A stretch of DNA of 64,000 bases from a virus (IMGVR_UViG_3300022591_000002), one strand, 5' to 3'. Counted from the stretch's first letter, positions 32,301-40,701 are shown. Made by a program: numbers and translations. The notes: generated from the sequence alone by a model not told the origin.

Positions 32301-32499
32301 TTGAGCTCCTAATGTTTCAGTGTATGTGTACATTATACCTTCAGAAGTTGGTTTTGTCAACCGGTTTACGAACAAAATCCCAGTCGGTGAAAGAGTGTTG
32401 TTTTTATGCCACACCAGCTAGATATGGTGGCCGGGTCCGTCCATCCCGTTGCCTTCGAAGTTTTATTATACAGTTGGTTTTACCATTTGTCAACCCCTA

Positions 32500-37766: not shown

Positions 37767-38111
37767 TTAATCCATACGCGAGCTAGCGTAGATTCTAGCT
37801 TCTGGAAAATACTGGCGGAAGAAGTCTGCGAACGCCTGCGCACCTGCTTCCTTAACACTGATGCTCTGGGTAGGCAAGCCTGCTGGATCCCACAGGTCCA
37901 AACACTTGGCCTTGTAGCTCTTACGGAAGCCTGCTTCAATCAACGCCTTTGCTTCCTTGCTGTTGGTACGATCCACATAGATCTCAACCCAACCAAAACC
38001 ACATGCATCACGCTCGCCCACTTGGGCATACATCTTCTTAGCGGCTTCTACAGCCTCAACCTTAGCGCCAGCAACCACGCTCAAAATCTGCTCTTTGCTA
38101 AAACCTTTCAT
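37767..38111 (-). CDS. Hypothetical early protein
   Basis: Cassette upstream; DACGFGWV. Confidence 0.75.
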   Translation of the reverse strand: MKGFSKEQILSVVAGAKVEAVEAAKKMYAQVGERDACGFGWVEIYVDRTNSKEAKALIEAGFRKSYKAKCLDLWDPAGLPTQSISVKEAGAQAFADFFRQYFPEARIYASSRMD

Positions 38112-38176
38112 ATCTCGCTCCTTAAGTGTTTAAGTGTATAGTATAGCATCAATGGTTTTACCTGTCAACCATTTTT

Positions 38177-38358
38177 GGGGAACTCCAGTCTACTTGTCCT
38201 GTACCGTCTACAGGCCTAGTGCTTTCGTCATTATTGCCTACTTACCTGTCAGCTTCGCCCGAAGGTCTGCCTTCTTGTCCTGGATACTAGGCACCCGTCA
38301 GTGCTCTTCCACCTCTCCTAGGACCTAACAGCGTAGGTAACCCCTAATTCCTTACTAT
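38177..38358 (-). ncRNA. Candidate structured ncRNA (~180 nt) with its own sigma70 promoter
   Basis: Promoter 38365-93 lacks the RBS-ATG part; nested stems and a UUCG loop; no credible ORF. Confidence 0.6.
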
Positions 38359-38404
38359 GTCTATAGTATAACACCGGTTTTACCTAGTGTCAACCGATCT
38401 GTTG

Positions 38405-38572
38405 TTAATATGTAACAGGAGCAAACATCTTTCTGCCCAACTGCATGAAATTACGGAACTGGGCCTGTATCTGCTCGTCGAACTCGTCCAAGTTCTCATC
38501 CATGTACTCTAACCCAACTAGCAAGTCACCGCCACCAGCTTCTTTAGCTACTTCAACAAGTCTATCAAACAT
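38405..38572 (-). CDS. Small acidic hypothetical protein (55 aa)
   Basis: MFDRLVEVAKEAGG...; cassette with AAGGAG upstream. Confidence 0.7.
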   Translation of the reverse strand: MFDRLVEVAKEAGGGDLLVGLEYMDENLDEFDEQIQAQFRNFMQLGRKMFAPVTY

Positions 38573-40340: not shown

Positions 40341-40371
40341 AAAAAAACCCTACTATATTGCTATAGTGGGG
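40341..40371 (-). terminator. Rho-independent terminator
   Basis: CCCCACTATA-GCAA-TATAGTAGGG-TTTTTTT. Confidence 0.8.
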
Positions 40372-40560
40372 TCTTCCCGCCTTGAGCTCAAGCATATATG
40401 GCTCAAGTCCGCTGGCCCTTCCACCTAGCCCCGTTACGGGTTGATCTAGCGTGTGTGCATCCGCTAACATCGGCAGGCCATTCTATACAGTAGGCACAGA
40501 ACTTCACAGTTCCCATTGAGCTAGGCTCGTTAACCATTTAGTCCGGTCCGCTTCTTTCCC
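40372..40560 (-). ncRNA. Candidate structured RNA in the tRNA trailer
   Basis: Multibranch fold closed by CCTAGCTC/GGGCTAGG, plus a CTTGAGC/GCTCAAG hairpin; ends at a terminator. Confidence 0.4.
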
Positions 40561-40624
40561 TGCTGTTAGCACTCGATTGACAACAGTCCGGTTTCGCTGT
40601 ATAATACGGTTACTTCAAAAACTA

Positions 40625-40701
40625 TGGTGGGCCCACCTGGACTCGAACCAGGGACCAAAGGATTATGAGTCCTCTGCTCTAACCAACTGAGCTATAGGCC
40701 C
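40625..40701 (-). tRNA. tRNA with CAU anticodon, Ile2 (lysidine)-type, encoded CCA
   Basis: GGGCCTA/TGGGCCC acceptor stem, TAGCTCAGTTGGTTAGAGC D-arm, CTCATAA loop, GTTCGAGTC T-loop; resembles ileX-type rather than Met tRNAs. Confidence 0.92.

Follow-up and report, generated by a model that had tools for sequence, protein, structure and literature searches.

The orphan RNAs GOLLD and ROOL of phages and prophages, whose function is unknown, are highly structured; they frequently occur next to tRNA genes, and both are represented in Rfam. According to the T4 annotation, rnaC (species 1) and rnaD (species 2) are likewise small stable phage RNAs with no known function, lying within the tRNA cluster and co-transcribed with the tRNAs. 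To our knowledge, the orphan classes GOLLD, ROOL, OLE and T4 rnaC/rnaD each remain a long-standing puzzle, and we know of few phage structured RNAs with as much covariation support as the family described here. Phage tRNA arrays are thought to counter host tRNA-directed defences. The HK022 put RNA and the EAR RNA are cis-acting processive antiterminator RNAs. Bacterial rRNA (rrn) operons comprise boxB, boxA and boxC elements and a leader-trailer helix around the 16S RNA (PMC10250234). Finally, Fremin et al. 2023 mined IMG/VR by covariation and reported 10,006 unnamed viral structured RNA candidates (PMC10690425). For one of them, DNAVirus_1850, 27 occurrences in IMG/VR and an overlap with a single tRNA-Asp prediction are reported; the paper gives it no name, function or context (PMC10690425).

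In this study we focus on a 64,000-nt stretch of DNA, hereafter the window, from the virus IMGVR_UViG_3300022591_000002, in which an earlier note had singled out a promoter devoid of a protein gene and had proposed that it drives an early, structured non-coding RNA. Positions 38165-38364 of the minus strand encode a genuine structured non-coding RNA, and our best explanation, to which we assign a probability of about 0.6, is that it is a trans-acting stable RNA tied to tRNA or translation biology. The window phage is a large, myovirus-type phage, whose genes include a tail sheath, a T4-type large terminase and a DnaB-type helicase. DNA identical to the window is present on a 317-kb contig, and the RNA cassette is identical in two independent assemblies. 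Sequencing runs that contain the whole stretch carry the label pond or viral metagenome, and the label is freshwater or lake for runs in which it is present only in part.

The RNA cassette and its immediate surroundings comprise the following features:

38365-38393 (-), sigma70-type promoter of the RNA cassette, TTGACA-17-TATACT, with the -35 TTGACA at 38388-38393, a 17-nt spacer and an extended -10 TG-TATACT at 38365-38370
38165-38364 (-), region matched over its full length by the family covariance model R1 (136.3 bits, E 1.4e-44, model positions 1-218)
38178-38342 (-), conserved core GGUUACC...GGAGUUCCC, 100% identical in a metatranscriptome contig
38140-38168 (-), next promoter cassette, which drives the 114-aa gene 37767-38111

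The promoter is present as the earlier note had described it, and is one of ~15 near-identical cassettes distributed across the early region at 30.9-40.1 kb; the same early promoters were recovered by a consensus scan. With the pattern GGTTGACA-N17-TATACT, it occupies 38365-38395 (-), 3' of the 55-aa gene 38405-38572 (-). The promoter pattern is matched 27 times for 7.5 matches expected, and 0 of 100 shuffles reach 27. All sibling promoters run into a leader ...ACACTTAAGGAGC-N-ATG, and the lack of this AAGGAGC-N-ATG half in the RNA cassette had also been rightly observed: its promoter continues into ATAGACATAGTAAGGAATTAGGGG..., where there is no start codon. Transcription is predicted to start near 38358. 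The ~190 nt behind the promoter contain neither an RBS-ATG nor an ORF, and no stop-to-stop frame longer than 27 codons crosses 38177-38358 on the minus strand. A scan between the RNA and the next promoter (from 38170) revealed no terminator-like site. The length of ~180 nt proposed earlier is an inferred figure.

At gathering thresholds, the region of the window RNA has no match in Rfam, the sole Rfam match in the window being a tRNA, and a 431-nt region searched at E ≤10 returned three chance snoRNA/miRNA matches only. The minimum free energy of the window RNA is -53.9 kcal/mol, with z = -1.10, and 34 of 200 shuffles fold equally well. From the sequence alone the stability of the fold is therefore unremarkable, and the wording "highly structured" does not hold as far as energy is concerned.

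Other non-coding stretches were observed in the window. A second promoter cassette without RBS-ATG is located at 32363-32495 (-), with GGTTGACA-N17-TATAAT at 32465-32495, followed by ~100 nt of GC-rich non-coding sequence with no R1 match and then by the promoter 32332-32362. The sole tRNA of the window, a tRNA-Met (40625-40701), is 2.2 kb from the RNA cassette. It is followed on its 3' side by ~260 nt of non-coding sequence (40341-40624, minus strand) that ends in a clear hairpin and U-run near 40345-40375 and has no R1 or Rfam match; this stretch may be another stable RNA co-transcribed with tRNA-Met. A near-consensus promoter at 40575-40605 (+) is directed antisense into the 3' end of the tRNA-Met gene. 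When the window was scanned with R1 no second copy was found, including at the candidate 40341-40560 with its shared 9-mer.

The family that includes the 165-nt core (38178-38342) was found in at least 180 viral or metagenomic loci, with ~100 distinct sequences. The metatranscriptome contig matches this core with 0 mismatches, while the remaining 40 nt of this contig are unlike the window. This evidence (run X20) consists of assembled contigs of ordinary depth that may be DNA carry-over and in which RNA ends are not visible, and the parts of the stretch uncovered in X20 carry no meaning. DNA contigs from another sample part from the window exactly at 38342, and two freshwater contigs span the RNA region at ~88-92% identity. 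Since the core is matched in contigs with different flanks, it occurs in other flanking contexts. Among the contigs found through homologues of the 55-aa protein, L029 and L030 have the RNA at full length and 80% identity, in another slot that lies upstream of the 55-aa homologue, and more remote copies are present in L025, L026 and L028. A strict pattern drawn from those copies yielded 26 IMG/VR loci and 68 JGI metagenome loci. The pattern of the 5' motif alone yielded at least 119 IMG/VR loci, and 93 of 98 new loci have a full-length covariance model match; as the searches were seeded on the 5' motif, the invariance of this motif is circular. Each locus contains one RNA copy.

The strict pattern has 0 matches in 185,579 prokaryote genomes. 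A relaxed pattern has three there, which we rejected as chance matches, two scoring 10-12 bits with R1 and one lying in apparent coding sequence. The 50,697 deposited phage genomes contain no true match: BLAST searches for near and distant similarity, with the window region and two other members as queries, returned only chance matches inside ORFs. The RNA is also absent from 18 IMG/VR relatives found through neighbouring proteins, and in L001 a 96-aa gene occupies the RNA slot. A decayed protein gene at the RNA locus was considered and rejected, as tblastx against the relatives found nothing. The family is confined to uncultured giant (myovirus-type) freshwater phages.

Comparison of 18 loci with Rfam at gathering thresholds, and of 12 at E ≤1, revealed only tRNAs and one permuted tmRNA elsewhere. 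Thirteen diverse members were compared with Rfam 15 at E ≤1 and match no family, riboswitches, ribozymes, RNase P, tmRNA, 6S, SRP, Y RNA, 5S and T-box included; the Rfam comparison is thus negative for the window RNA and for these members alike. Neither ARAGORN nor Rfam detects any likeness of the family RNA to tRNA. A permuted tmRNA (RF04321, 65.8 bits) was observed at L057:393-707 (+), on a contig that also contains a family member and tRNAs.

Covariation was assessed on A2, a plain MAFFT alignment of 44 distinct members fitted to no structure. Its invariant words are GGUUACCUA, C.GUUAGG, GACGGG, A.GAA, UAGG..UAAU and AGACG, with variable hairpins between them. RNAalifold recovered 24 pairs only from the plain alignment, and duplex folding of leader against trailer yielded a closing helix of 20-25 bp whose sequence is quite different among clades. 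Eight helices (45 pairs) were set by hand, with 3' partners slid by 1-3 columns and shuffles serving as controls. In A2, 88.5% of the cells pair, compared with 38.6-53.6% when the partners are slid, and 29 of the 45 pairs change on both sides in a compensatory manner. The covariation score is 0.364, for at most 0.136 in the slid controls, and none of 500 shuffles reaches the observed value. In an alignment of 94 distinct sequences to the model, which leans towards that model, 93.0% of the cells pair (42-47% in slid controls) and compensatory changes are seen in 34 of the 45 pairs, among them 19 of the 21 P1 pairs and all 5 of hairpin A. Moreover, the frequent G-U pairs make the fold strand-specific, and the strand is that of the flanking promoters and tRNAs.

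The fold that these abundant compensatory changes maintain has a closing helix P1, stacked helices P2 and P3, a junction of P3, P4 and P5, two hairpins (A and B) and conserved junction strands, whose conserved unpaired nucleotides are GGUUA, AGG, A.GAA, UAAUGA and AGACG. In the window, its elements are, from 5' to 3' of the RNA:

38341-38344 (-), P1 5' strand, here cut to GGGG (21-25 bp in relatives)
38333-38337 (-), P2 5' strand CCUAC
38327-38331 (-), P3 5' strand CUGUU, with U at position 2
38277-38324 (-), P4 domain, with outer stem GUCCU-a-GGA / UCC-AGGAC
38291-38304 (-), hairpin A, GCACU-GACG-GGUGC, inside the P4 domain
38257-38276 (-), A.GAA junction (38272-38276) and, 3' of it, the variable P5 hairpin, whose loop is UUCG
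38246-38250 (-), P3 3' strand GACAG
38237-38241 (-), P2 3' strand GUAGG, then the conserved J2/6 (..UAAUGA.GAA.., 38220-38235)
38198-38214 (-), hairpin B, CCUGUA-GACGG-UACAGG, with loop consensus AGACGGU or AGACGUU (AGACGKU)
38181-38186 (-), conserved J6/1 GGAGUU
38177-38180 (-), P1 3' strand CCCC, then AAAAAUGG, then at once the next promoter

The central proposal of the earlier note, a structured non-coding RNA driven by an early promoter, is strongly supported by the homologues and by the compensatory base changes, and all the strings it quoted are present in the places it gave. Several of its helices agree with the covariation of the family: CCUAC/GUAGG is P2, the CUGUU/GACAG part of its stacked stem is P3, GUCCU/AGGAC is P4, the C(UUCG)G hairpin is the variable P5, and CCUGUA/UACAGG is hairpin B. 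Other parts of its fold have to be revised. The terminal GGAAUU/AGUUCC stem is replaced by the family closing helix, in which the GG of GGUUACC pairs with the CC that follows GGAGUU. The k-turn-like hairpin GGUG-GAAGAG-CACU gives way to hairpin A, since CACU pairs downstream in GCACU-GACG-GGUGC, all five pairs of which covary among the 94 sequences; the kink-turn was also rejected on the ground that other clades have unrelated sequence in place of the upstream GGUGGAAG. Only one subclade could form the CCUAGU/ACUAGG pseudoknot, and the repeated 9-mer CAGGACAAG does exist in the window but is not conserved in the homologues.

The window copy possesses P2, P3, hairpins A and B and all the invariant junction words, and its row in the 94-sequence alignment contains every position conserved at ≥95%. 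At position 2 of P3, the U of the window copy is offset by an A in the partner strand, where most relatives have C-G. The loop of hairpin A is conserved as GACG/GCCG, with GCCG in 24 of 94 members. While the invariant core nucleotides and the internal helices are all intact, the long P1 (~21-25 bp) of the relatives is down to ~4 bp, consisting of GGGG/CCCC and two weak pairs only, and the R1 score is ~55 bits below that of the nearest clade. A short P1 is also found in a minority of members (L043, L046 and L025). With most of P1 lost and no terminator, the window RNA may be trimmed from a read-through early transcript, or this may be a weakened or decaying copy. A mosaic member was observed at L073:7775-7989 (-), in which the P4 domain is identical to that of the window copy and P5, P6 and the long P1 are of the L029 type, which implies recombination inside the RNA gene.

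Rfam and ARAGORN revealed that many members lie inside phage tRNA arrays, with up to 31 tRNAs per locus. In 13 of the 16 loci of the first set, tRNA-Asp(GUC) comes next on the strand of the RNA. In 60 further distinct loci the next tRNA is Asp in 18, Glu in 17 and another in 7, and none is found within 400 nt in 16; the loci counted are related, so these figures describe conserved synteny and not independent events. The downstream tRNA frequently begins 0-6 nt past the R1 match, and in L067 it is squeezed in with tRNA-Glu on one side and tRNA-Ala on the other. The layout in the arrays comprises tandem promoters, a boxA-like word, a P1 of 21-25 bp, the RNA, tRNA-Asp/Glu and further tRNAs. One or two sigma70-type promoters stand at about -100 and -200, with a small hairpin each. 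The boxA-like word, GTTCTTTAAAAA or GTTCTTTAACAA, is located 38-48 nt upstream of the R1 match in ~32 of the 85 members with enough flank, for 83 occurrences overall in 3.5 Mb. The boxA of E. coli rrnB, read for comparison, is TGCTCTTTAACAA at the corresponding place (L224:1016-1028). In most relatives, this arrangement shows the family RNA as the first gene of a putative stable-RNA unit resembling an rRNA operon, and it suggests that Nus-type antitermination may drive phage tRNA operons.

The rRNA-operon-like front end was seen ~300 nt upstream of the RNA in L169, L222, L168, L209, L140, L189, L159, L207, L055 and L038, with tandem TTGACA-17-TAxxxT promoters ~100 nt apart, a small hairpin for each, and then GTTCTTTAAAAA/GTTCTTTAACAA. 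ARAGORN further predicts a tRNA with anticodon CUA (amber suppressor, labelled Pyl) at L038:493-568 (+), and a tRNA-Asp with anticodon AUC in L150, 131 nt upstream of the RNA; these two tRNAs may be signs of recoding or unusual decoding.

The second context, common to ~1/3 of the members, is the stand-alone one, to which the window copy belongs. Here a single promoter abuts the RNA, with a -10 ending ~7 nt before P1, so that transcription would start at the base of P1. The downstream feature is another promoter, an RBS or tRNA-Asp, and in ~20 distinct loci it is an independent strong promoter. The window copy has no boxA-like word and no rrn-like surroundings, being placed between a promoter directly upstream and a promoter downstream.

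The cassette has been gained or lost between near-identical phages. In the closest sister contigs, L021-L023, which encode a 55-aa protein of 95% identity, a single promoter separates the 55-aa gene from the 114-aa gene, the promoter of the latter coming directly after the 55-aa gene; the module of promoter and RNA, ~225 bp bounded by the GGTTGACA repeat, is missing. Alignment of window 38171-38395 with L021:1452-1521, L022 and L023 displays the whole module as an indel, between flanking proteins that are 95-100% identical. This suggests that cassettes are shuffled by recombination between repeated early promoters. The copy in the window is displaced, the usual place of this RNA being the head of phage tRNA operons.

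If the RNA is a trans-acting stable RNA, as we propose, it would be cut out of its transcript and accumulate. RNase P, cutting at the following tRNA, would generate the 3' end, and P1, which is long enough for an RNase III site, would be where RNase III or the pairing of the ends acts. Indeed, a long helix that pairs the ends, a start at its base and an abutting tRNA argue for an excised, exonuclease-protected stable RNA. Once excised, it would act in trans on a host or phage component of the tRNA, translation or RNA-processing machinery. In the window phage, the RNA would be made early by the host RNA polymerase, and would either be freed from the read-through transcript by another nuclease or stay as a 5' leader. 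Action in trans is favoured by the finding of the same core before tRNAs, promoters and assorted genes as well as free-standing; for the family we consider it slightly the better bet, the variety of contexts being the one argument for it. The linkage with tRNA arrays and the rrn-like design suggest a target in tRNA, translation or RNA-processing biology. A bolder form of this proposal, in which we place rather little trust, is that the RNA is a catalytic or protein-scaffolding stable RNA occupying the place of 16S in an rrn-mimicking operon and acting on the host translation/tRNA system. If true, the phage would recruit the host rRNA antitermination and processing machinery for bulk output of RNA and tRNA, and the RNA might reprogram or protect tRNAs or ribosomes during infection.

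Several specific candidates were tried and rejected. Varied downstream neighbours (a promoter, an RBS, a tRNA or nothing) count against gene-specific cis regulation, and a riboswitch or gene-specific cis-regulator was rejected on this ground, the RBS lying at variable distance and no terminator following the window copy. T-box-like tRNA sensing was rejected because the loops are unchanged when the neighbour is tRNA-Glu, Ala or Leu, and no Rfam T-box model matches. Reading of the tRNA-Asp anticodon by the GAC loops is contradicted by the members with GCCG in hairpin A (24 of 94) and by others with still different loops. An rRNA fragment or mimic was rejected as well: on E. coli 16S, 23S and 5S, R1 with filters off matched only the rrnB terminator hairpin, as a fake P1.

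A generic cis-acting leader, whose folded 5' end would modify whatever follows, has to be considered more seriously, although we regard it as unlikely. It could operate through processive antitermination or Rho protection (as for HK022 put, or EAR-like), through stabilising of the transcript, or as a guide for tRNA precursor processing, and our estimate covers these routes jointly. The RNA always lies right behind a promoter, or behind a promoter and boxA, it holds the place of the leader or of 16S in the rrn-like unit, and in the window as in L032/L056 the downstream genes follow it without an intervening terminator, all of which would suit such a leader. However, an extra antiterminator would be redundant where boxA is present, and in the many loci in which a tRNA starts 0-6 nt after P1, RNase P would sever the RNA from the elongating polymerase. 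The independent strong promoter that comes next in ~20 distinct loci also speaks against action in cis, and a helix of 21-25 bp pairing the ends is better suited to an excised stable RNA. Alternatively, the window copy could be a decayed and now functionless remnant, be it of a gene cassette or of an RNA copy left behind by cassette shuffling. Its eroded P1, the missing boxA and tRNA, the R1 score under that of its clade and the absence of the cassette from the closest sister phages would fit, but we hold this to be very improbable, since the invariant core and the internal helices are intact, P3 having its compensated U-A pair, the core is 100% identical amid different flanks in another sample, the short P1 is shared with L043, L046 and L025, and the locus was never a protein gene.

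Among the functions proposed in the earlier note, an anti-defence role, by which an abundant early RNA would imitate some feature of tRNA or rRNA and titrate a host nuclease or sensor directed at tRNAs or the translation apparatus, seems improbable to us. The strong early promoter in the window, the linkage with phage tRNA arrays and the presence or absence of the RNA between near-identical phages, a pattern typical of accessory counter-defence genes, are in line with such a decoy; on the other hand the RNA is unlike tRNA (ARAGORN, Rfam) and unlike E. coli rRNA, and the idea is entirely speculative. A ribozyme, self-cleaving or acting on tRNA precursors or other RNAs with the junction strands as active site, is in our opinion quite improbable. 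The unpaired junctions (GGUUA, AGG, A.GAA, UAAUGA, AGACG) display a conservation of riboswitch or ribozyme grade, in a compact multi-junction fold located among tRNA genes, yet no Rfam ribozyme or RNase P model matches the 13 diverse members at E ≤1, no conserved cleavage-site signature was recognised, and no data require catalysis. As for a Csr/Rsm-type protein sponge, the six GGA triplets of the window copy had been counted correctly, but they are no enrichment over the 5.7 expected, their positions are not conserved in the alignment, and they lie outside the conserved loops, which are GACG/GCCG and AGACGGU/AGACGUU and not A(N)GGA; we give this possibility next to no credence. The reading that we prefer is that of a stable RNA acting in trans.

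This family is abundant in giant freshwater phages, and is absent from Rfam and from the deposited phage genomes and prokaryote genomes searched. Its placement ahead of tRNA-Asp/Glu links it with large phage tRNA arrays, whose biology is unexplained, and suggests that giant phages may copy the host rrn design of promoter, boxA and processing stem for untranslated RNAs. Furthermore, that a free-standing early cassette is gained or lost between near-identical phages argues for a value of the RNA in itself. With the covariance model and the alignment, the family can be searched for and approached by experiment.

In the literature searched, no such RNA is named. DNAVirus_1850 (PMC10690425) could be a subset of the window RNA family, a comparison made by description only. 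The family resembles the small stable RNAs rnaC and rnaD of T4 in its position within tRNA clusters, but has no homology to them in sequence or structure: R1 has no match at E ≤1 in T4 68.0-76.0 kb, the tRNA region. T4 rnaC ends in a tRNA-like T-arm, which the family lacks, and the family RNA is larger (~200-300 nt), with a closing helix of 21-25 bp and its own promoters with boxA. Like GOLLD and ROOL, it is an orphan structured phage RNA adjoining tRNA genes, whereas those RNAs measure 500-800 nt and have unrelated folds, and no Rfam model matches the family. The HK022 put and EAR RNAs share with it a position just downstream of promoters and ahead of long operons, but are much smaller or have other folds, with no homology (Rfam negative); unlike them, the family RNA would often be severed from its transcript by way of the adjacent tRNA, and it co-occurs with boxA. 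In layout, array members resemble the front of bacterial rrn operons, which have tandem P1/P2 promoters and a spacer tRNA-Glu or distal tRNA-Asp: the likeness covers tandem promoters, a small hairpin, a boxA-like word (GTTCTTTAAAAA/GTTCTTTAACAA, for TGCTCTTTAACAA in E. coli), a long helix in which the flanks of the first RNA pair, and tRNA-Glu/Asp directly after. The enclosed RNA differs, being of ~170-230 nt and not 16S, with no likeness to E. coli 16S, 23S or 5S, and none of the rrn-like parts is present at the window copy. Judged by this layout, the array front end is a probable copy of the front of an rRNA operon, with the RNA in the place of 16S, a setting that appears undescribed. We class the RNA as a new family within a known kind, the orphan phage stable RNAs linked to tRNA genes.
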